This document shows positions 993 through 54,847 of a DNA stretch of 64,000 bases, in pieces. Within the stretch, counting starts at the first letter, position 1; each line of letters starts with the position of its first letter. Position numbers and translations under genes: made by a program. The stretch comes from Patescibacteria group bacterium. Its GTDB lineage: Bacteria > Patescibacteriota > Minisyncoccia > Phycocordibacterales > JBBTRF01. The stretch covers positions 230,413 through 294,412 of the forward strand of contig JBBTRF010000001.1 of the NCBI GenBank assembly GCA_038065315.1, read 5' to 3'. The notes under the pieces were generated by a model. The model worked only from the letters and a program-made list of their open reading frames with translations, had not been told where the DNA came from and did no database searches.

Positions 993-2396
993 CTAATTTT
1001 CTATCGCTTTTTCGATGTATTTTGCGTTGAGCCAGAAACATTTCTTCATCTCCTTGGTTCCCTGAGGAGTTTCGACAGTATCGGAAGAATCCTTGCCGTG
1101 CGGGCGGACGTGAACAATGGAGCTATCCTTCATTTTTGGCAGGTCCTCGTATCGCCCCTCATTTATTGCATCAATAGTCTTCTGCCACACCCTCTCTGCC
1201 TCTGACAAGTCTTTCATCGGGAAGTTCCAGAACATAGTCTTTCGCAAAATGATATCGTCAGAGTCTTTCACCTTCTGAAATACAACGAAGAGAAACTTTT
1301 GCGTTTCTAGAAGAGCGTGCAGGTCAGCCATCTCCTCTGTGTCATCATCCTGCCAAACCTGAGTGACCAGGTCCTTATAGTCGAATGCGGGGAATGAAAT
1401 AGACTCACGGAGAGTTCCTGTATGTTCAAGCGTTAGCACCTTGAGAGTCACGTTCGCCTTTTCGAGTTCCTCGATTTTATTTGACTCAACACCAAAAATC
1501 CGGTTCACCAAGATTCGCTTGTAATTCTTTGATTCGCCAACAGACTTCCAACCTAATACTGCTGCTATTTCTTTATCGGTCTTACCGATAAAGGGTGCGA
1601 ATTCCTCATGAACCACAGCTTCGATTGTCTTCGCTTTAACTTTTTTTGCTCGTGCCTTCTCCAACAGTGAGTCCGCCTCCGTTTTGTTCCCCAGGAGATC
1701 TCGTTGAATTAGGTAATTTAGATATTGTTGCTTGAAAGAAAAAGCTCTTGGCTTCGCTGGAATACGTGAAGTCGGCTGATCTCGAAGGATACGGCTATTC
1801 TGTGCCTTAGTACAAGCCCCGAGATAGTACGTATCCCCCTCTGAAAGTAAGTGGGCTTCACCGGCTTTTATCTTTGCGACAATGAACTCCCAATCCCTCT
1901 GGATTTGCAAGATATCGTCAGCGGAAATATCGTTCACATTCAACAAGTCGAGTTGTTTAATGAACTTGAACTCGTGATCAACGATACTCTGTCCTTGCAT
2001 ATGAAGATAGAACATCAGGAGTAAGAACTTGTTTTTCTCTAGAAAAGAACTGCTCCGCCAGACCTCTTTTATCACCTCGTCATAATCAATCATTGAAAAA
2101 ACGAGTCTCTCCTTCGAAGTGTATTTTCTGGTTGGGTGTTTCTTAAGAGGATTGGTCTTTAGCTCGACGCCGGCAAGGTAAAAATCAGCCTCGTTCTTAT
2201 TGTCCGGCTCTTTACCAAAGACATAACGTTGAATGTAAATACCGAGCAACCCCTTCATCTTTGAACCATACCTACTCACTTCCGCCTCGACAGAACCTAT
2301 CTCATTCTTAGGAATAATGGAACGTAGATTCTTCTTGAGTATCTTCTGTGCGGCCGCAAACACCTCTTCCTTGGTCTTGAATTCTGTATTATTCAT
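993..2396 (-). CDS. Type II restriction endonuclease, Sau3AI/MutH family (likely GATC-specific)
   Basis: N-terminal region ...ADFYLAGVELKTNPLKKHPTRKYTSKERLVFSMIDYDEV...SSSFLEKNKF resembles the MutH/Sau3AI catalytic core (D..ExK, GVELKT). It lies 50 nt upstream of the C5-MTase on the same strand, and its 467 aa is close to Sau3AI size. Confidence 0.7.
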   Translation of the reverse strand: MNNTEFKTKEEVFAAAQKILKKNLRSIIPKNEIGSVEAEVSRYGSKMKGLLGIYIQRYVFGKEPDNKNEADFYLAGVELKTNPLKKHPTRKYTSKERLVFSMIDYDEVIKEVWRSSSFLEKNKFLLLMFYLHMQGQSIVDHEFKFIKQLDLLNVNDISADDILQIQRDWEFIVAKIKAGEAHLLSEGDTYYLGACTKAQNSRILRDQPTSRIPAKPRAFSFKQQYLNYLIQRDLLGNKTEADSLLEKARAKKVKAKTIEAVVHEEFAPFIGKTDKEIAAVLGWKSVGESKNYKRILVNRIFGVESNKIEELEKANVTLKVLTLEHTGTLRESISFPAFDYKDLVTQVWQDDDTEEMADLHALLETQKFLFVVFQKVKDSDDIILRKTMFWNFPMKDLSEAERVWQKTIDAINEGRYEDLPKMKDSSIVHVRPHGKDSSDTVETPQGTKEMKKCFWLNAKYIEKAIEN

Positions 2397-3054
2397 CTTG
2401 GTTTATATGATACTTTATTATGCTCAAATATGCATTTTTGGTCACAATAACATGATCAGTGAGATGAATATCAAGTATTTTGCCAGCATGAACAAGCTTC
2501 TTGGTCATTTCAATGTCTTCTCCGGAAGGCTGCGTGACTCCGGAGGGATGGTTGTGAGCCACGATAACACTCGCGGCACGTAAAGTGATGGCTGGTTCAA
2601 ATAATTCACGGGGGTGAGCAAGGCTTGCGTTGAGCGTACCAATCGAGATGACCTGTCTCTCTATTAGACAGTCCTGTGTGTCGAGATAGAAAGCGACGAA
2701 ATGTTCCTTTTTCGAATCTTTTATGTCCGAACAGAGTTTCCAGACATCAGTAGGAGATAGTACTTCCGTTTTCTGAACGGTAAAACGGTCCGTTAGTTCA
2801 AGGATGGATAAAACCTGAGCCGCCTTCGCCTTACCCAATCCCCTAATCGATAAAAGATGCTCGAGGCCAATCTTTTGCTTACCGATCTCGGAGATAAGCT
2901 CCAGTATCTTTTTTGAAAGCTGCAAGACATTCGAACCTTGGATACCGGAACCGAGAACTACAGCAAGAAGCTCTTGATCGGTGAGTCTTTTGACGCCATA
3001 CTTCTGCAATTTCTCACGAGGAAGGTCGACCTTTGGTAGTGACATCATTTTCAT
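2389..3054 (-). CDS. radC: RadC-like JAB/MPN domain protein (UPF0758)
   Basis: N-terminal HhH region (LTDQELLAVVLGSG), JAMM motif HNHPSG and downstream D. The gene overlaps the REase start by 8 nt. Confidence 0.8.
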   Translation of the reverse strand: MKMMSLPKVDLPREKLQKYGVKRLTDQELLAVVLGSGIQGSNVLQLSKKILELISEIGKQKIGLEHLLSIRGLGKAKAAQVLSILELTDRFTVQKTEVLSPTDVWKLCSDIKDSKKEHFVAFYLDTQDCLIERQVISIGTLNASLAHPRELFEPAITLRAASVIVAHNHPSGVTQPSGEDIEMTKKLVHAGKILDIHLTDHVIVTKNAYLSIIKYHINQDE

Positions 3055-48257: not shown

Positions 48258-48539
48258 CTAGTCGCGATATTCCCAACGATTATTCAACTTGTTGATAGTC
48301 TTACCAGAGAATACCTTTGTCATACCGAGCGGAGTAATCTTCTTTTTATACGGACTCTTAGATAGCACCCTGGATACAGTTGCCTTATGTACGTAGGGCA
48401 TTGATTTATGATTTCTGAGTAACTTGAAGAAATGAATCTGATCAATCGTCAGCTCAGCATTATCGCCGCATTGTGAGGTTCTTACTGCTTTGTTGAGAGC
48501 GGCGGCAACTAGGTCTGCTGTTTTGTTGATTGTTGTCAT
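48258..48539 (-). CDS. small hypothetical protein, weak HU/IHF-like resemblance (AT-rich)
   Basis: 93 aa; the N-terminus MTTINKTADLVAAAL resembles the HU N-terminus. Sits between repeat copy D and tRNA-Arg. Confidence 0.3.
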   Translation of the reverse strand: MTTINKTADLVAAALNKAVRTSQCGDNAELTIDQIHFFKLLRNHKSMPYVHKATVSRVLSKSPYKKKITPLGMTKVFSGKTINKLNNRWEYRD

Positions 48540-48555
48540 GTTTTATAGAATTAAG

Positions 48556-48627
48556 TACCCTCGGGAGGATTTGAACCTCCGCGTTCTCGCTAGAATCGAG
48601 ACAGTCTATCCATTAGCTTACGAGGGC
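48556..48627 (-). tRNA. tRNA-Arg (anticodon UCU)
   Basis: Manual fold: acceptor GCCCTCG/CGAGGGT (G1:U71), anticodon stem TCTCG/CGAGA with loop ATTCTAG, T-arm GGAGG-TTCAAAT-CCTCC, discriminator A, no encoded CCA. Confidence 0.8.
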
Positions 48628-48719
48628 AGAAAAAATAAAGCGCTGAGCCATAGCGCCAGTAGGTCCTTTATCTTCTGCGTCTCGTAAACACAGCCGGTAT
48701 CATTGCCTTCAATATAGCA

Positions 48720-50225
48720 TTATTTCACCCTATTCTCCAGCACCTTCCAGATCTCCACCATTGCCAACGTATCGAGGTGGCAGTAGTCTTCGAGCGCCTG
48801 AATTTTTATTTCCCTCTCTTTTTCAGAATATTCACCGCTCACGATACGATTCCACGTATCGGAAGCCGCGCCACCATCCTGTATGTGCATATCCTTGTAT
48901 GACAAGTGCGGCACCAATGCGGGCAACACATACTTGATCGAAGCACTTCCCTTGAATGCAGGGTGATCATACACCGCAGTCTTACCGGAAAATGGGATCA
49001 TGAGGTCGACCACGCGACTATTCACACTTTCCATGAACGCTTTGTATTCCGGCAGGCGTTCACCAAGCTGTGTATTGATTCCTTTTTCGAATTTCTGATT
49101 CCACACAACAACGCTACCCGTCTTCGGAAGATGCTTCTGCAGCGCTTCAGCAAAATATCTATCAGGACACTCTTGCTCCGTGTAGATAAAATCATAGTGC
49201 GCCATATCATCGCCGTGAGCATTCACGACATGCAGCGAAAACTGAAATGGGACCTGCTGATATGGCCTGTGCTGGTTGTATTTCGGTATCGCCGAAGGAT
49301 ACGTTTCGTAATCCAGAAACGCGAACGGGTATTTCATGGTGTCCAAAAAAGCCACAACACCCTCGCTGTCGATATACTCCCGACCAGACTGTGCGGTGTC
49401 CACCTGCCGTCGCTGAGGATCCGACAATTCAAAGTCCTCGGGCACGTCGTAAATGCTGAGAATGTTGTTGTCCACGAGCTCCGCAAGCTTGTTCTCTCGT
49501 ATTCGCGCGATCGCGTGGACAGGATACTCCGGCAGATCAGCATTGGAATATGCCGAGGTGGTGCAGTGCGCGTTCCAACCCTTGAGAATACAGTCGCAAT
49601 GCCCCGCCGGCTCTTTTTCACTCGCGAGCCGCTCGTATGCGCCATCCATCTTGTGTCTCACCTCCCCAAGCTTTTCATTCACCTGCTCTGTCATATCCTC
49701 AACAATGAACAGCTGCTTGAGATCCAGATCTCCGGCCCGCACGTACTCCTTGTTGAGCCGGATGAGACTGAGCGTACCCATCCTAATACCCAGATCATCC
49801 AAGATATTTTTTTGAAAAGCAATGTCGATTAGATACTCTTCAGTTTTTCGACCCTCACCTCCTCCTTCTGAAGATGTCGAGGATTTCACCTCATATAGGT
49901 CGTATGCGCTCGTGGAGTCATTCCATACCAACATGTCGGAAGCAGTGATGAATTTTTCCGTGGCAAACACCGGCTGATAGATGACGGCGGTTTTGGCGGC
50001 CATGAGCTTTTTGGTCAGCTCGGTATCGTCGCGAAACTCGACCAGCACTCCGCCGGGAAACAACCCTCGCGCCAGCTCGTCGATCTGGTTGCCAGTATCA
50101 ATAATGTTCAACTCAAAAGCCGAGAGCGGGTATTTTTTATATATATCCGGTCGGTGGATTTTCAGCCAGGCGTTCTTAGCGCAATCAAGGCAGGTGAGGA
50201 AGTTGGTTTTTGAGAGTAGGAACAT
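48720..50225 (-). CDS. DUF2779-like protein (PD-(D/E)xK nuclease-like, N-terminal Cys motif)
   Basis: N-terminus LSKTNFLTCLDCAKNAWLKIHRPDIY resembles the DUF2779 / Cas4-N-terminal-like signature (SK..F..G.QC.K..WL). Start is 1 nt after the preceding gene's stop. Confidence 0.5.
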   Translation of the reverse strand: MFLLSKTNFLTCLDCAKNAWLKIHRPDIYKKYPLSAFELNIIDTGNQIDELARGLFPGGVLVEFRDDTELTKKLMAAKTAVIYQPVFATEKFITASDMLVWNDSTSAYDLYEVKSSTSSEGGGEGRKTEEYLIDIAFQKNILDDLGIRMGTLSLIRLNKEYVRAGDLDLKQLFIVEDMTEQVNEKLGEVRHKMDGAYERLASEKEPAGHCDCILKGWNAHCTTSAYSNADLPEYPVHAIARIRENKLAELVDNNILSIYDVPEDFELSDPQRRQVDTAQSGREYIDSEGVVAFLDTMKYPFAFLDYETYPSAIPKYNQHRPYQQVPFQFSLHVVNAHGDDMAHYDFIYTEQECPDRYFAEALQKHLPKTGSVVVWNQKFEKGINTQLGERLPEYKAFMESVNSRVVDLMIPFSGKTAVYDHPAFKGSASIKYVLPALVPHLSYKDMHIQDGGAASDTWNRIVSGEYSEKEREIKIQALEDYCHLDTLAMVEIWKVLENRVK

Positions 50226-50226
50226 A

Positions 50227-50619
50227 TTAAAATAGATGCTTATATTCTCGATAATTCTCCCTCACGATTCTCTGCCACTCAGCCGTTTCGTTGTGACTGG
50301 CGATGTCGGTTTTGCCATAGACGAGTAGCACGCTGACACATTGTTTTTCTTCATGCCACGCCACAATACACCGATTACCCGATGTCCTTGCAGATTCCTT
50401 GGTCCGATCGACTCGAAATTCAGTCTTCACGATCTTAATACCCTCGACATCACAGATCGTCTCAGCCCTGCTGGTAGTGATGAGGAGATCAATACGCTCA
50501 AGCCCAGCAATAATAGCTCTCAGAGTCACTTCCCAATGACCTTTGTACTTCTTCTCAAAACCTTTGATAAAGTGCCTTTCCGCAAAAGGTTCAATTCGTA
50601 CAGAATAGTTTCCCTGCAT
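50227..50619 (-). CDS. Putative toxin, RelE/ParE-superfamily-like (partner of the Panacea antitoxin)
   Basis: C-terminal GNRCIVAWHEEKQCVSVLLVYGKTD resembles the RelE/ParE core G.yRiiY...v.vl.i.hR. Starts 8 nt after the HTH-Panacea gene stop. Confidence 0.35.
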   Translation of the reverse strand: MQGNYSVRIEPFAERHFIKGFEKKYKGHWEVTLRAIIAGLERIDLLITTSRAETICDVEGIKIVKTEFRVDRTKESARTSGNRCIVAWHEEKQCVSVLLVYGKTDIASHNETAEWQRIVRENYREYKHLF

Positions 50620-50626
50620 ACATGTA

Positions 50627-51328
50627 CTAGAAAACCATTTCCGGGTCCTCCTGGGTGATCAGCTCATAGGGAATAATCTCGTCCGGCCGGCAGATAGCAT
50701 ATGGAAGTTGGTTGTGAGTGAAATTCACAATTTCGCCCGTTTTTTTATCTTTCCATTTCTTACCGATCTCTTTCATGAGCTTCACCTCATCGATAGAGAG
50801 GTCGTTGATCTTTTCATTGGTATTGCTCTCCGATTCGCTGATCAAAAACATTTCTTTGCCGTTGTCGGTCTTTCTTTCCACGACGATCTTCCCTGCCTCT
50901 TCGAGCTCATCGATAGCACGGAAAAAAGTGTCTGGTACCGGACCGTATTCAATCCTTCGATACTGCATGCCGCTCATACTTTGCGAATGATCGTAGTACC
51001 AAGCGAAATCAGCGAGATAGAGCAGCTTGGCGAGCTTTGTCTTAGGAATTTTATTGTCGGCCTTGCTGGTAAGATTCATTCTCAAGTAGGTCAAGATCAT
51101 GTGCTTGTACTTGGCAATGTTCGCGATGTTGCCCGACAGAAGCTCGTCGACAGTGATCCCGAGCATCGAGGCTAGCTTTTGTGCTTCTTCTGCGCTCAAT
51201 GTTTGCTTGCCAGACTCAATAGCCGTATAGGTAGGCCGCGACACGCCAATAGCCTTCGCCATCTGCTCTTGCGAAAGATTATTCTTGAGGCGAAACTCCT
51301 TCACCTTTTGCATATACTTGTTGCTCAT
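50627..51328 (-). CDS. HTH(XRE)-Panacea (DUF4065/SocA-like) antitoxin-type protein
   Basis: N-terminal XRE HTH (LSQEQMAKAIGVSRPTYTAIESGKQ); C-terminal KLAKLLYLADFAWYYDHSQSMSGMQYRRIEYGPVPD matches the Panacea/DUF4065 hallmark. Confidence 0.6.
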   Translation of the reverse strand: MSNKYMQKVKEFRLKNNLSQEQMAKAIGVSRPTYTAIESGKQTLSAEEAQKLASMLGITVDELLSGNIANIAKYKHMILTYLRMNLTSKADNKIPKTKLAKLLYLADFAWYYDHSQSMSGMQYRRIEYGPVPDTFFRAIDELEEAGKIVVERKTDNGKEMFLISESESNTNEKINDLSIDEVKLMKEIGKKWKDKKTGEIVNFTHNQLPYAICRPDEIIPYELITQEDPEMVF

Positions 51329-51432
51329 GCATCAAGTATATGCAATGGATGTAAAGAAGTCAAGCAGGTTTGGTGGGTTATTTTACAAGTCTGATACGAA
51401 GAATGCAGTAACGTGATAAAACCGCTCTATAA

Positions 51433-53439
51433 TTATTCTTTTATGACACAAACAACCACACCTTGCACCCCAACCTCTTCATTACTCGTAAACTTCAATG
51501 GTTTGTGTTTTGAATTACTCGATCGAGGTTTTAAGACCACAACACCGCCCTCACGACGATATTCTTTTATAGTTGCATCATCTCCAATAAGTGCCACCAC
51601 ATTGTTCCCCTCTTCTGGATGATAATTTTTTCGACACAGAACTAAATCTCCATCATTAATTCCGACTTGATTCATTGAGTCACCAGAAGTTCTCAAAACG
51701 AAATACTTTGAACCTTTAGACATTAGCTCACTTTTAACAGGAATCATTTCTTGTACGGTAGAATCAGCAAACATAAGCTCTCCGCATCCAACAGAATCAA
51801 ACAAAGGAACGTTTATAAAGCCACTAACATATGGAGATTCTATTGATGTATTATTATCTTTTAGTACTCCTTCACCTGCACTCAAGCTAACATGCTCTTT
51901 AAAGTAATCTCTTAAATTATCGTCAGTAATATAAACGTACGTACCGAGGATTCCTCTTGTTAGCAACGTTTTATAAATATTAATAACATATCTTTTTAAC
52001 TCCTCTGGATCATCTACTCCTCTATGTCCATTTGAATCTAGGTACTTAGTTTTATCGACTACGATCTTTTTACTGATCGGATCATAAGACATTTCAGGGC
52101 CAATTATAACTCCAGCGTAGTTTAGATCGTATCCTTGAATTGTATGGATGCAACCCACTTCATTGATGGCATTAGGAGAATTCACCCAGTCGTGAATTTT
52201 ACTATTCCAAAATAACTTAATATCTCCTATAACAATATCTGGCACTTTTACATCATTTCTTGATACCCACTTCCATGCGTACCCTGCCACTAAGCGAGAC
52301 AGGGTGTGAATTTTTTCTTGTTTTTTGATATCAATTACCATTTGCCCCAGATCACTGTAAACTTTAAAATCATATTCCGAAAAATCAGCTCTCGTGCTCA
52401 CCTTACTTTCCATTAAGTGATCGATGAAATCAAGGTATTCTCGTCCTCCTCTTACACGCATCTGTGTCTTAAGTTCAAAACTTATTGGATTGGATTCTAA
52501 AACCTTCCGCATCGAAATATCAGAAGGCCTCACAGATTGTCTTTCGTCATAAAAGAGTACGACGTGGCTCGCTGATTTTAGTATCCAATCGAGTTCTGTC
52601 CCCTCATTCCCCAAGCCAAAACTTTTATTGGTTGTATCAAATGTCCCGTAGTTTGGAATATTCCTTCTTTGATGTAGACGATGTGTTTCATCGACGATCA
52701 AAATGTCGTATTTCTGATTCGCGACCTCGTTTGGACCAATTACCATGTTTGGACTTAGGCCTGGAATACTTCTAAATACTTTCTTTAGCGTCTTTCTTAA
52801 AGAAACCATAGCAATTACCAGCGCAATGTCTTTTCTACCTTCCTGAACCAACTGCTTAACTAAGTAAGTAGCTAAAATAGTCTTGCCAGTACCTGGCCCG
52901 CCATGAATAATATAGGACTGTCTCTTATCCCCTCTAAAATATTCTAGTAGCTTTGAAGCAATCAAGTATTGATCGTCTGTGAGAGTTTTATATGGAGAAT
53001 ACTTAAAAAGATCGCTATTGCGAATTTGCAGCAGGTCATTCCTTGCAATCTTTAATTCTTGTAGTTTTTTCCACAATAACTCAAACTTCCCTCGATATCG
53101 TTCACGGTCAAAATAATCATGATTTTGCAAACCTCCGTTTCCGTTCTGAAGAATATACTTACCGTCGGCCACCAAATACTCAATCAATGAAGATTCCGTG
53201 TCGAGAGTCGCTGATTTATTAAATTCGTCGTCAGAAATAACGTGAATGGTCTTTAATTGCTTCCGGGCCCCATTCTCTAAATGCTGCTTCGTTCTAGCAT
53301 AAGCTCTAATTGTTTCTCCAACATAGAGTTCTTTTCCGTTTTCTATTAGATAAACAACTGGCCAATCACTACCGTACTTATAGTTACGTATTTTCTCTAC
53401 GCCAGATGAACTGAATGGAAATTTTACTATTTCTGACAT
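51433..53439 (-). CDS. Three-domain fusion: N-terminal GIY-YIG nuclease + P-loop ATPase (DUF2075-like) + C-terminal LexA/UmuD-like S24 peptidase domain
   Basis: GIY-YIG: VVYLIENGKELYVGETIRAYARTKQH with downstream conserved E (DTESSLIEY) and N (QNGNGG). ATPase: Walker A HGGPGTGKT, Walker B ILIVDETHRL, VLFYDERQ. S24: GDSMNQVGINDGDLVLC...VVALIGDDATIKEYRREGGVVVLKPRSSN (Ser nucleophile in GDSM, Lys in TIKEY; compare LexA GDSM...TVKRL). Confidence 0.7.
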   Translation of the reverse strand: MSEIVKFPFSSSGVEKIRNYKYGSDWPVVYLIENGKELYVGETIRAYARTKQHLENGARKQLKTIHVISDDEFNKSATLDTESSLIEYLVADGKYILQNGNGGLQNHDYFDRERYRGKFELLWKKLQELKIARNDLLQIRNSDLFKYSPYKTLTDDQYLIASKLLEYFRGDKRQSYIIHGGPGTGKTILATYLVKQLVQEGRKDIALVIAMVSLRKTLKKVFRSIPGLSPNMVIGPNEVANQKYDILIVDETHRLHQRRNIPNYGTFDTTNKSFGLGNEGTELDWILKSASHVVLFYDERQSVRPSDISMRKVLESNPISFELKTQMRVRGGREYLDFIDHLMESKVSTRADFSEYDFKVYSDLGQMVIDIKKQEKIHTLSRLVAGYAWKWVSRNDVKVPDIVIGDIKLFWNSKIHDWVNSPNAINEVGCIHTIQGYDLNYAGVIIGPEMSYDPISKKIVVDKTKYLDSNGHRGVDDPEELKRYVINIYKTLLTRGILGTYVYITDDNLRDYFKEHVSLSAGEGVLKDNNTSIESPYVSGFINVPLFDSVGCGELMFADSTVQEMIPVKSELMSKGSKYFVLRTSGDSMNQVGINDGDLVLCRKNYHPEEGNNVVALIGDDATIKEYRREGGVVVLKPRSSNSKHKPLKFTSNEEVGVQGVVVCVIKE

Positions 53440-53442
53440 ATT

Positions 53443-53790
53443 CTAAAGTTTATTATACTTAGTATGTTTTCCTTTAGCTTTCTCAACCGGATATTTTTCT
53501 TCATTAACTCTAATTTTCTTTTCAAGTGCATTTAGTACATCGATATTTAAATCGTGACTCATGAGTAGAACCCAGTACAAAACGTCTGCCAATTCTTCTC
53601 CTATAGCGACTTTGTTTTCTTTTACATATTTTTCCATCTCTTCCTTATTTTTCCACTGAAAATGTTCCATTACTTCACCAGCCTCCAAAACAAGAGAAAG
53701 GGCGACATCTTTAGGATTGTGGAATTGCTTCCAATCTCTTGCGTCACGAAAAGCAATTATTCTCTTTGTTAGATCGATAATGTTTTTCAT
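53443..53790 (-). CDS. MazG-like nucleotide pyrophosphohydrolase (all-alpha NTP-PPase)
   Basis: LVLEAGEVMEHFQW...IGEELADVLYWVLLMSHDLNIDV: EExxE/D metal-binding helices of the MazG/HisE fold. Start refined to MKNIIDL (ATG at 53790); 3-nt gap to the downstream gene. Confidence 0.55.
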   Translation of the reverse strand: MKNIIDLTKRIIAFRDARDWKQFHNPKDVALSLVLEAGEVMEHFQWKNKEEMEKYVKENKVAIGEELADVLYWVLLMSHDLNIDVLNALEKKIRVNEEKYPVEKAKGKHTKYNKL

Positions 53791-53794
53791 ATAT

Positions 53795-54847
53795 TTATTT
53801 CTCATTATTCCCCTCCCCCACCCTCTTCTCAACCCTTTTCTGCACGCCAACCATAGCATCCAAGTACGCTTTTTCGACATCGCTCAGTGTCTTTTGTTGA
53901 TATTTCCGGTACTCGACAGTGGCTTTATCCACCGCCTGCTCATGACTCACCGCTCCTGCGCCGGACAACAACTGTTCGCCAGTGGAAGCGAGTATCCCAT
54001 CGAGGTGCTTCGCCCAGTCTACCATTTTCATCGGAATCTCCCGCTCAGCTTGACGCTCGGCGAAGTCGAGATATCCGGAAACAATCTGCCCGAGTGCGCG
54101 CAGCTCTTTCTCATTCAAATAATTCTTAGCGATCGCCACATCCTTGAGTTGCGGTTTCGAGCCAGCAAAGGTCGTCAGGCCCATAAAATCCTTTTCGGCA
54201 TCAGCTCGGCTATAAATAACTTCCGCTGCCGTCTGCCCATGCACGGCGCAGTGGACTTTATTTTGGATCTTTTTGAAAAATTCTATAGAGGTCTCGGCTC
54301 GGGCATCATAGTCGATGCTCGTAGCGTAGATATCCAAAATTTGGCGATAAAATACTTTCTCGCTGCTGCGAATGTCGCGGATGCGAGCCAGGAGCTCTTT
54401 CCAATATCCACCGCCACCGAGATCCTTCAGACGTTCGTCGTCCATTGCAAAACCTTTGACGATATACTCCCTAAGCCGTGCTGTGGCCCACTGGCGAAAA
54501 TGTGTGCCCTGTACGGAATTTACGCGGTACCCAACCGATATAACGACATCCAAATTGTAGTGCCTCACTGATACTTCTTGCGTTTTTCCCTTTATAGCGC
54601 CGTGTTCTGTGGTTCGTCGGAATTCCCGACATACCACCCTCTCATCCAATTCACCCTCTCTAAAGATATTAAGTATGTGCTCTGCGATAGTTGAACGGCC
54701 TTTATTGAATAGTTCGGCAAGCTGATCCTGATTAAGCCACACCGTCTCGCCCTGCATGCGCACCTCAAGACGAGGCTTGCCCTCGGTGCCTTCGTAAATA
54801 ATTATTCCATTGTTTGGTGGATTGTCTTGCATATCAGCGCCTCCCAT
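53795..54847 (-). CDS. RhuM-family protein (Virulence_RhuM domain)
   Basis: HYNLDVVISVGYRVNSVQGTHFRQWATARLREYIVKGF and IQNKVHCAVHGQTAAEVIYSRADAEKDFMGLTTF are characteristic RhuM-family blocks; 4-nt gap to the MazG-like gene. Confidence 0.55.
   Translation of the reverse strand: MGGADMQDNPPNNGIIIYEGTEGKPRLEVRMQGETVWLNQDQLAELFNKGRSTIAEHILNIFREGELDERVVCREFRRTTEHGAIKGKTQEVSVRHYNLDVVISVGYRVNSVQGTHFRQWATARLREYIVKGFAMDDERLKDLGGGGYWKELLARIRDIRSSEKVFYRQILDIYATSIDYDARAETSIEFFKKIQNKVHCAVHGQTAAEVIYSRADAEKDFMGLTTFAGSKPQLKDVAIAKNYLNEKELRALGQIVSGYLDFAERQAEREIPMKMVDWAKHLDGILASTGEQLLSGAGAVSHEQAVDKATVEYRKYQQKTLSDVEKAYLDAMVGVQKRVEKRVGEGNNEK

Follow-up and report, generated by a model that had tools for sequence, protein, structure and literature searches.

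Toxin-antitoxin (TA) pairs built from a Panacea-domain antitoxin (PanA) and a partner toxin (PanT), together termed PanAT, were defined by Kurata et al. 2022, and 343 of the PanA proteins carry a helix-turn-helix (HTH) domain (PMC8832971). The partner toxins named by these authors include MqsR-like, Fic/Doc, toxSAS, PemK and ParE proteins, and accessory third genes, including nucleases and helicases, are allowed in their scheme (PMC8832971). In the part of their Dataset S1 that was available to us, several PanT groups (T14, T28 and others) stand in antitoxin-first pairs and reach HHpred probabilities of up to 99.7% for HigB-2, RelE, YoeB or ParE; a PanAT system with a RelE-like partner is thus of a kind already known, by prediction (PMC8832971). 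RelE/ParE is also among the commonest folds in the TA network, in which appended domains can neutralise (Ernits et al. 2023, PMC10440598). In this study, we describe a locus of three genes, here called A, B and C, in a stretch of 64,000 nucleotides (nt), referred to as the window, from a metagenome-assembled genome (MAG) of the Patescibacteria (candidate phyla radiation, CPR). In our judgement A and B probably form a self-contained PanAT-type, type II TA module in which B, an mRNA endonuclease of RelE/HigB2 type, would be neutralised by A, with C a mere neighbour. To our knowledge, Patescibacteria do not grow in pure culture, and very little of their TA systems and defences has been described; a literature search found no paper that combines Patescibacteria, toxin-antitoxin and Panacea. 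The three genes are as follows.

51328..50627, minus strand: gene A, HTH-Panacea antitoxin (PanA) of 233 amino acids (aa), with Pfam HTH_3 and SocA_Panacea domains, preceding B in 62 of 63 loci.
50619..50227, minus strand: gene B, toxin candidate (PanT) of 130 aa with a predicted RelE/ParE-superfamily fold, closest to HigB2.
50225..48720, minus strand: gene C, DUF2779 protein (Pfam PF11074) of 501 aa, with a putative Cas4-like PD-(D/E)xK N-terminal part and a putative DEDD-type 3'-5' exonuclease C-terminal part.

In the open reading frame (ORF) listing all three follow one another on the minus strand, as a preliminary description of this DNA had them, with a 1-nt gap between B and C (TAA-T-ATG); the gap between A and B is 7 nt and not the 8 nt given there. 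Since homologues are numerous for all of them (2,555 for A, 555 for B and more than 4,828 for C), they are real genes and no chance ORFs.

From GTDB genomes, 65 species-level loci with relatives of B were collected and then searched with the proteins of the window. Upstream sequence was present in 63 of them, and in 62 of these A immediately preceded B, the two genes being separated by 1-14 nt or overlapping by 11-43 nt (-43 to +14 nt). An overlapping Panacea gene also stands in front of each of four distant relatives of B (29-40% identity), and in two of the four the Panacea partner has no HTH and measures 165-174 aa. A-B thus shows what Kurata et al. 2022 used to delimit PanAT, namely two genes no more than 100 nt apart in at least two species. 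The suggestion that B might be an uncharacterised PanT was therefore a fair one, as B has a dedicated Panacea partner in 62 of 63 loci and in the four distant relatives. The sole exception is locus L065 (5820-6393), where A has decayed to its last dozen or so codons. The B copy found there carries W29R, A52S and W115R, three changes at positions with a conservation of 95% or more elsewhere, and no other full-length copy has as many. This offers modest evidence in keeping with a toxin that may be tolerated without its antitoxin only after damage. The genes downstream of B vary and include HsdR (type I) in six loci, a type ISP enzyme, a UvrD-PD-(D/E)xK fusion, a PIF1 helicase, an alpha/beta hydrolase, CysRS, a histidine kinase and a cation-efflux protein.

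Two observations on related Panacea genes are recorded here. A distant relative of B in locus L081 has a Panacea partner (2337-3020) whose reading frame contains TGA twice, and the first of these codons, at least, aligns with a glycine of A; the module therefore extends to a CPR lineage with genetic code 25, in which UGA stands for glycine. L013 (2372-3441) and L035 (9252-10308) each carry another HTH-Panacea gene, a paralogue with 25-27% identity to A, and a protein of 111-112 aa is encoded behind it. This partner looks RelE-like by eye (...RLIYAYH...YFKGDKENED...); it had no match in Pfam or PDB, and hhalign against the B family returned a probability of 1.8%.

The HTH-Panacea assignment of A holds at Pfam level, where both thresholds were exceeded: HTH_3 scored 64.7 bits against a gathering threshold of 23 (residues 9-63), and SocA_Panacea (PF13274) scored 52.6 bits against a cutoff of 25.7 (E = 1.1e-13, residues 99-209). 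The parts of A are listed below.

51140..51304, minus strand: Xre/Cro-type HTH domain of A, residues 9-63 (Pfam, AlphaFold2, Foldseek).
50702..51034, minus strand: Panacea (DUF4065) domain of A, residues 99-209 (Pfam PF13274, AlphaFold2).
50630..50701, minus strand: C-terminal tail of A, residues 210-233, ...IPYELITQEDPEMVF, candidate toxin-binding or neutralising segment.

The AlphaFold2 model of A has a mean predicted local distance difference test (pLDDT) score of 74.9 and contains a five-helix Xre-type HTH at residues 4-65, followed by a linker helix and by a Panacea domain that is modelled with confidence over residues 96-191; residues 204-233 fall below a pLDDT of 50. Foldseek matched the model to C-proteins, to the 434 repressor and to the HTH domains of HigA and SinR. 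The Panacea part itself had no solved match in the PDB by fold or by sequence, where HTH relatives alone were returned. The tail of A (FTHNQLPYAICRPDEIIPYELITQEDPEMVF) is near-invariant among 37 homologues, and its C-terminal motif, ...(I/V)PYxLITQE(D/E)P..V(F/Y), is kept in the Panacea partners of all four distant B relatives, those without an HTH included. Residues 210-233 would thus be a candidate neutralising segment that binds the toxin, and the Panacea domain together with the tail is the likely B-binding surface, because the HTH-less partners of the distant B relatives keep the tail. Disordered segments of RelB, YefM and HigA2 that fold onto their toxins offer a parallel (PMC5416850); in other PanA proteins the appended elements neutralise, with Panacea as accessory or sensor (PMC10440598). 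Public gene calls start A at the ATG at 51313 and yield a 228-aa product. The alignment of upstream regions described below shows that this codon is ATA in many orthologues and that the ATG at 51328 is conserved, and for this reason the 233-aa start at 51328 is taken as the true one.

The B product is 100% identical to a public entry, 'MAG: hypothetical protein [Patescibacteria group bacterium]', and its 555 close homologues all come from CPR MAGs where their source is named. At E <=1e-3 the family comprises 217 clusters at 50% identity among 1.84 billion representatives, and nearly all members have 125-145 aa. B had zero matches in Pfam, PADLOC and NCBIfam and nothing usable in PHROGs. Profile comparison with RelE/ParE, HigB and YoeB models had been proposed as a check and yielded none at threshold: 36 close members of the family did not match the curated RelE/ParE/HigB/YoeB/YafQ models, and 60 diverse members searched against Pfam gave a single match, to PF06296 ('RelE', a HigB2-like family), at E = 0.014 and below threshold. 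A PDB search with the single B sequence was discarded, its top matches being spurious (AP-2 adaptor). When a profile of the close members was run against 177,635 PDB sequences, HigB-2 of V. cholerae was the sole match (E = 0.13), and a broader profile built from the 60 diverse members returned HigB-2 entries only (E = 0.007).

Structure prediction was in agreement with this match. The AlphaFold2 model of B, computed from a 36-sequence alignment, reached a pLDDT of 90.1 and a predicted template modelling (pTM) score of 0.85, and the modelled chain fits the RelE/ParE fold, with an N-terminal strand and helices on an antiparallel sheet of three to four strands, with or without a C-terminal helix. 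The RelE fold is thus shown for B in the predicted structure, as the preliminary description had expected; its 'RelE/ParE-like core' stands at the level of fold and of a weak HigB2 profile match, and fails at the level of the family models. The active site of HigB2 consists of Arg51, Arg64, Tyr82 and Lys84, located on beta2, beta3 and beta4, and alanine at Arg64, Tyr82 and Lys84 cut toxin activity 350-, 1200- and 3000-fold, respectively (PMC5416850). In the aligned block, SGNR-(C/L)-I...LLVY-(G/S)-K-(T/N)-(D/E) of B faces GGSRIIYY...LLTIYGKNE of HigB2, and the HMMER alignment pairs R83, Y101 and K103 of B with Arg64, Tyr82 and Lys84. In the 60 diverse members (28-61% identity), K65, R83 and E111 are invariant, and conservation is 90% or higher at Y101, K103, S76, S80 and G81. 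The invariant K65, which lies four residues before position 69 on the same strand, is the likely counterpart of Arg51. These residues point to a RelE/HigB2-type mRNase active site in B as a probable feature, and fold and residue alignment together make a ribosome-dependent mRNA endonuclease of RelE/HigB2 type the most likely activity of the protein. B might instead be a ParE-type toxin that poisons DNA gyrase and has no mRNase activity, a reading that we consider unlikely.

The upstream regions of A were aligned from 59 related loci, and the following elements were recognised in the window.

51358..51363, minus strand: -35 hexamer TTGACT of the A-B promoter (consensus scan 10/12, 17-nt spacer), within GCTTGACTTTTTTACA, which is near-invariant in the 59 loci.
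51335..51340, minus strand: -10 hexamer TATACT, 6 nt before the ATG of A.
51308..51345, minus strand: palindrome TTGCATATACTTGATGC-atga-GCAACAAGTATATGCAA, candidate operator, centred on the start codon of A.

The pattern upstream of A consists of GCTTGACTTTTTTACA (-35 TTGACT), a 17-nt spacer, TATACT, a short spacer and the ATG, and the geometry from the -10 to the ATG appeared similar in most of the aligned loci, as judged by eye and uncounted. Because the -10 hexamer is only 6 nt from the ATG, the A-B mRNA is probably leaderless and would start at the A of ATG 51328. The left arm of the palindrome holds the -10 hexamer, the right arm corresponds to codons 2-7 of A, and the dyad axis lies no more than about 2 nt from the A of the ATG. 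Arms of 13-21 bp were present in 37 of the 59 loci and co-vary within a locus: arms scored 11.8 with their own partner versus 7.0 in chimeras (Wilcoxon p = 2e-8), with paired changes such as TTGGTC/GACCAA, TTAATC/GATTAA and CTGGCTC/GAGCCAG. An RNA-hairpin reading was disfavoured by the mismatches, of which 2 of 28 are sense-strand G.T (no excess), and by the position of the left arm upstream of the predicted transcription start. The palindrome suggests an operator for a dimeric HTH protein, with classic type II autorepression, where binding by A is presumed from the geometry. An additional inverted repeat of conserved sequence, ATGTC(A/G)A-N4-5-T(T/C)GACAT, occurs upstream of the -35 in many loci and is absent from the clade of the window.

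The following course of events is proposed for the module. A-B would have been acquired horizontally and would reside in a low-GC, defence-type island of the Patescibacteria genome. The Xre-type HTH of A would repress the operon at the palindrome that overlaps the -10 hexamer, and A would bind B directly through its Panacea domain and its disordered, invariant tail (residues 210-233) and so neutralise it. Loss or inactivation of A would free B, which, to judge from the fold and the residue alignment, would cleave mRNA on the ribosome by means of K65, R83, Y101 and K103 on the face of the beta-sheet, and translation would be arrested. Other PanA systems suggest, by analogy, that proteolysis, or a phage cue to which Panacea responds, might act as the trigger. 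The TA pair would have landed directly upstream of the widely conserved C, which is probably co-transcribed and translationally coupled here and would be no component of the module.

The genomic setting was examined over the low-GC, compositionally mixed stretch of about 48.2-54.9 kb that is bounded by dprA and topA. The GC content is 0.467 for A, 0.45 for B and 0.499 for C; among the neighbours it is 0.415 for the 93-aa ORF, 0.375 for a 668-aa helicase gene, 0.358 for a MazG-like gene and 0.499 for RhuM, and the flanking core genes range from 0.53 to 0.585. Three features lie beyond C.

48630..48657, minus strand: terminator-like hairpin with T-run, the first such signal downstream of the promoter at 51363, after C.
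48555-48627, minus strand: tRNA-Arg(TCT), directly past the terminator-like hairpin behind C.
48258-48539, minus strand: 93-aa ORF, GC 0.415, after tRNA-Arg, without matches and conserved within the same species.

The region of tRNA-Arg and the 93-aa ORF may be the edge of the acquired stretch. Around the island, no flanking direct repeats, att-like repeats or integrase were seen, and a search of viral contigs for relatives of B returned none. On the other side, directly upstream of A-B, a MazG-like gene (53443-53880, minus strand) precedes the 668-aa helicase gene (51433-53439, minus strand). The 668-aa protein combines a weak GIY-YIG/PDC-S14-like region at its N-terminus, an SLFN-group-3/DUF2075 helicase (7e-64; PADLOC Nhi and AbiO matches at about 1e-15) and a LexA-type S24 peptidase domain at its C-terminus (2.8e-24); a nuclease-helicase with a self-cleaving LexA-like domain is an unusual architecture. 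The RhuM-family protein (53795-54847, minus strand) matches Pfam at 2.6e-106 and the PADLOC candidate defence family PDC-S05 at 1e-160, and RhuM relatives also lie near A-B in L009, L044, L047, L059 and L080. Restriction and defence genes are frequent near A-B in other genomes (HsdR, type ISP, RhuM and the UvrD-PD-(D/E)xK fusion), and this defence-rich neighbourhood is compatible with a possible role of the module in phage defence or island stabilisation.

Two wider readings take up this neighbourhood. A-B could belong to a larger defence system that also includes the MazG-like gene and the gene for the 668-aa nuclease-helicase-S24 peptidase protein. MazG and the SLFN/DUF2075-type helicase lie directly upstream of A-B in the window and just upstream in 7 of the 65 other loci (L007, L009, L028, L037, L038, L047 and L055), the PADLOC matches of the helicase are to Nhi and AbiO, and mazG is known as a third gene of mazEF. 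The MazG-helicase pair is nevertheless missing from about 88% of the loci, the distance from the helicase to A varies from 96 to 1220 nt, A-B has a conserved promoter of its own, and the GC content of 0.36-0.375 differs strongly from the 0.45-0.47 of A-B; co-localisation within an island is equally explanatory, and we regard a larger system as very unlikely. As a speculation of similarly low probability, the pair could act as a phage-sensing abortive-infection switch of CPR bacteria, in which Panacea would sense a phage cue and the tail would release the HigB2-like mRNase, while the derepressed, leaderless and palindrome-controlled transcript would in this genome also drive the Cas4-like/DEDD exonuclease encoded by C, so that a DNA nuclease would be induced upon derepression of the TA operon and not otherwise, the palindrome being a regulatory device in its own right. 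We prefer to read A-B as a self-contained PanAT-type module, and the part played by C is considered next.

C matches PF11074 with 132 bits against a threshold of 23.3 (2e-38, residues 303-429), and its family of more than 4,828 matches, at 66-80% identity, is spread across Patescibacteria. The invariant residues of the C alignment are C15, C210, C212 and C221; D97, D109, E112 and K114; D305-x-E307; and D485. Within the RNase H-like superfamily, PF11074 falls into the 3'-5' exonuclease clade, and it is fused to a Cas4/DUF83-like PD-(D/E)xK domain (Majorek et al. 2014, PMC3985635), and the Mycoplasma homologue MMSYN1_0389 was described in a 2026 study as a quasi-essential Cas4-like and exonuclease fusion (PMC13621843). 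By these residues, and by an assignment taken from the literature, the N-terminal half of C fits a putative Cas4-like nuclease with a Cys cluster; the earlier reading of C as PD-(D/E)xK-like with Cys motifs agrees with C15, C210, C212, C221, D97, E112 and K114 and with both sources (PMC3985635, PMC13621843).

Since the first terminator-like signal after the promoter lies behind C, and none was seen in the intervals separating A, B and C, this last gene is probably co-transcribed with the TA pair in this genome. A true tripartite system can accordingly be envisaged, in which the DUF2779 nuclease would be an effector or accessory of the PanAT pair, made from the same transcript and acting together with the toxin. 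Besides the 1-nt gap, such a system could draw on a second juxtaposition in L011, where a DUF2779 gene 39% identical to C follows B after 7 nt; two of about 66 loci exceeds, by a rough estimate, what is expected for one particular gene, and accessory third genes, nucleases included, occur in some PanAT clusters (Kurata et al. 2022, PMC8832971). The co-occurrence that the preliminary description had wished to see checked was, however, confined to that one of the 65 other loci: no DUF2779 gene lies downstream of B in the other 64, and the closest relatives of B (82-85% identical) have other genes there. One further DUF2779 gene, in L025, is 5.5 kb away from B. Close homologues of C (73-77% identical) are found in contexts without A-B, namely after rpoD among housekeeping genes, after an EcoRI-type methylase with GmrSD/HNH, and after an AAA_13 ATPase gene. 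The DUF2779 family is moreover large and reported to be quasi-essential in a minimal Mycoplasma, and the GC content of C (0.499) differs from that of A-B (0.45-0.47). A conserved third gene, as in mazEFG, paaR-paaA-parE or TAC, is thus not seen behind A-B; DUF2779 was ruled out in this capacity by the 1/65 co-occurrence and the close homologues elsewhere, so that the arrangement of three genes does not hold up as a system and a tripartite system seems to us very unlikely. We read the position of A-B next to C as a local accident of insertion. In L070 (3822-9758), the DUF2779 gene follows the methylase and GmrSD/HNH pair after 12 nt and its 3' end is overlapped by 4 nt by the gene of a 753-aa unknown protein; in L074 (1563-7494), the homologue is located behind the AAA_13 ATPase. 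DUF2779 genes may often border defence islands.

A type VI arrangement resembling SocAB, in which the Panacea protein would deliver B to a protease and not sequester it, can appeal to SocA as the founding Panacea-domain protein and to the Pfam name SocA_Panacea, but it is most improbable, given that A scores 13.8 bits with the NCBIfam SocA equivalog NF047745 against a cutoff of 190, that B is unrelated to SocB and has a predicted RelE fold, that experimentally tested PanAT pairs form direct complexes (PMC8832971), and that an HTH with a promoter-overlapping palindrome is the classic type II layout.

Several points weigh against A-B as a self-contained pair with a RelE/HigB2-type toxin. B does not belong to a curated RelE/ParE sequence family, and its homology consists of the fold and a weak profile match. 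Arg51 of HigB2, on beta2, aligns to position 69 of B, which is variable in the wider family. B has the standing of a candidate toxin, for which toxicity, neutralisation, complex formation and RNA cleavage are predictions from sequence and model. The palindrome arms co-vary over their full 13-21 bp, beyond the demands of a simple HTH operator, which accounts for this only in part. Only 1 nt separates B from C and no terminator intervenes, so the expression of C probably depends on the TA promoter here, and the juxtaposition in L011 is independent of the one in the window.

The Panacea network gains from this analysis a compact, unannotated family of predicted RelE-fold toxins, with 217 clusters and confined to CPR where taxonomy is given. 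The tail of A, invariant yet disordered and kept in HTH-less partners, provides a hypothesis on how Panacea proteins neutralise a RelE-type toxin that can be examined by mutation. For annotation, we suggest the name RelE/HigB2-like PanT toxins for the B family and a shift of the start of A to the upstream ATG; a false lead is also removed, as DUF2779 falls outside the system. What is new here is a toxin family without a model or annotation that seems to be restricted to CPR, together with a candidate neutralising tail at the C-terminus of A and the palindrome centred on the start codon. The pairing of A and B is less unusual than was first thought: Kurata et al. 2022 report 343 HTH-PanA proteins and, in the available part of their dataset, PanT groups that match HigB-2/RelE/YoeB/ParE.

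Compared with DUF2779 fusion proteins (family F.17), C has the same D...ExK and four-Cys motifs in its N-terminal part and DxE and H...D motifs in its C-terminal part, and it is distinctive solely by its position 1 nt behind a toxin gene. RelBE, YefM-YoeB and ParDE have ribbon-helix-helix (RHH), Phd or ParD antitoxins, whereas the antitoxin here is an unrelated Panacea protein; B is also without sequence-level family membership, and the mRNA is probably leaderless with a palindrome centred on the start codon. From HigB2 (PMC5416850) and PF06296, B differs in an overall identity of about 15-18%, in scoring below the PF06296 threshold, and in having about 20 more residues and a long N-terminal helix. 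In higBA2 the toxin comes first and HigA2 consists of an N-terminal disordered neutralising segment and a C-terminal HTH, whereas here the antitoxin comes first and is built in the order HTH, Panacea and tail. The locus resembles described PanAT systems in its Panacea antitoxin with an N-terminal HTH, in the order of antitoxin then toxin, in a gap of no more than 100 nt and in conservation across species. It differs from them in that the B family has no Pfam or NCBIfam model and was found only in MAGs of Patescibacteria/CPR, which were not seen in the available part of the Kurata dataset, and in that the candidate neutralising element is a C-terminal tail, where the described systems have an N-terminal Phd-C, PAD1 or ZBD element.

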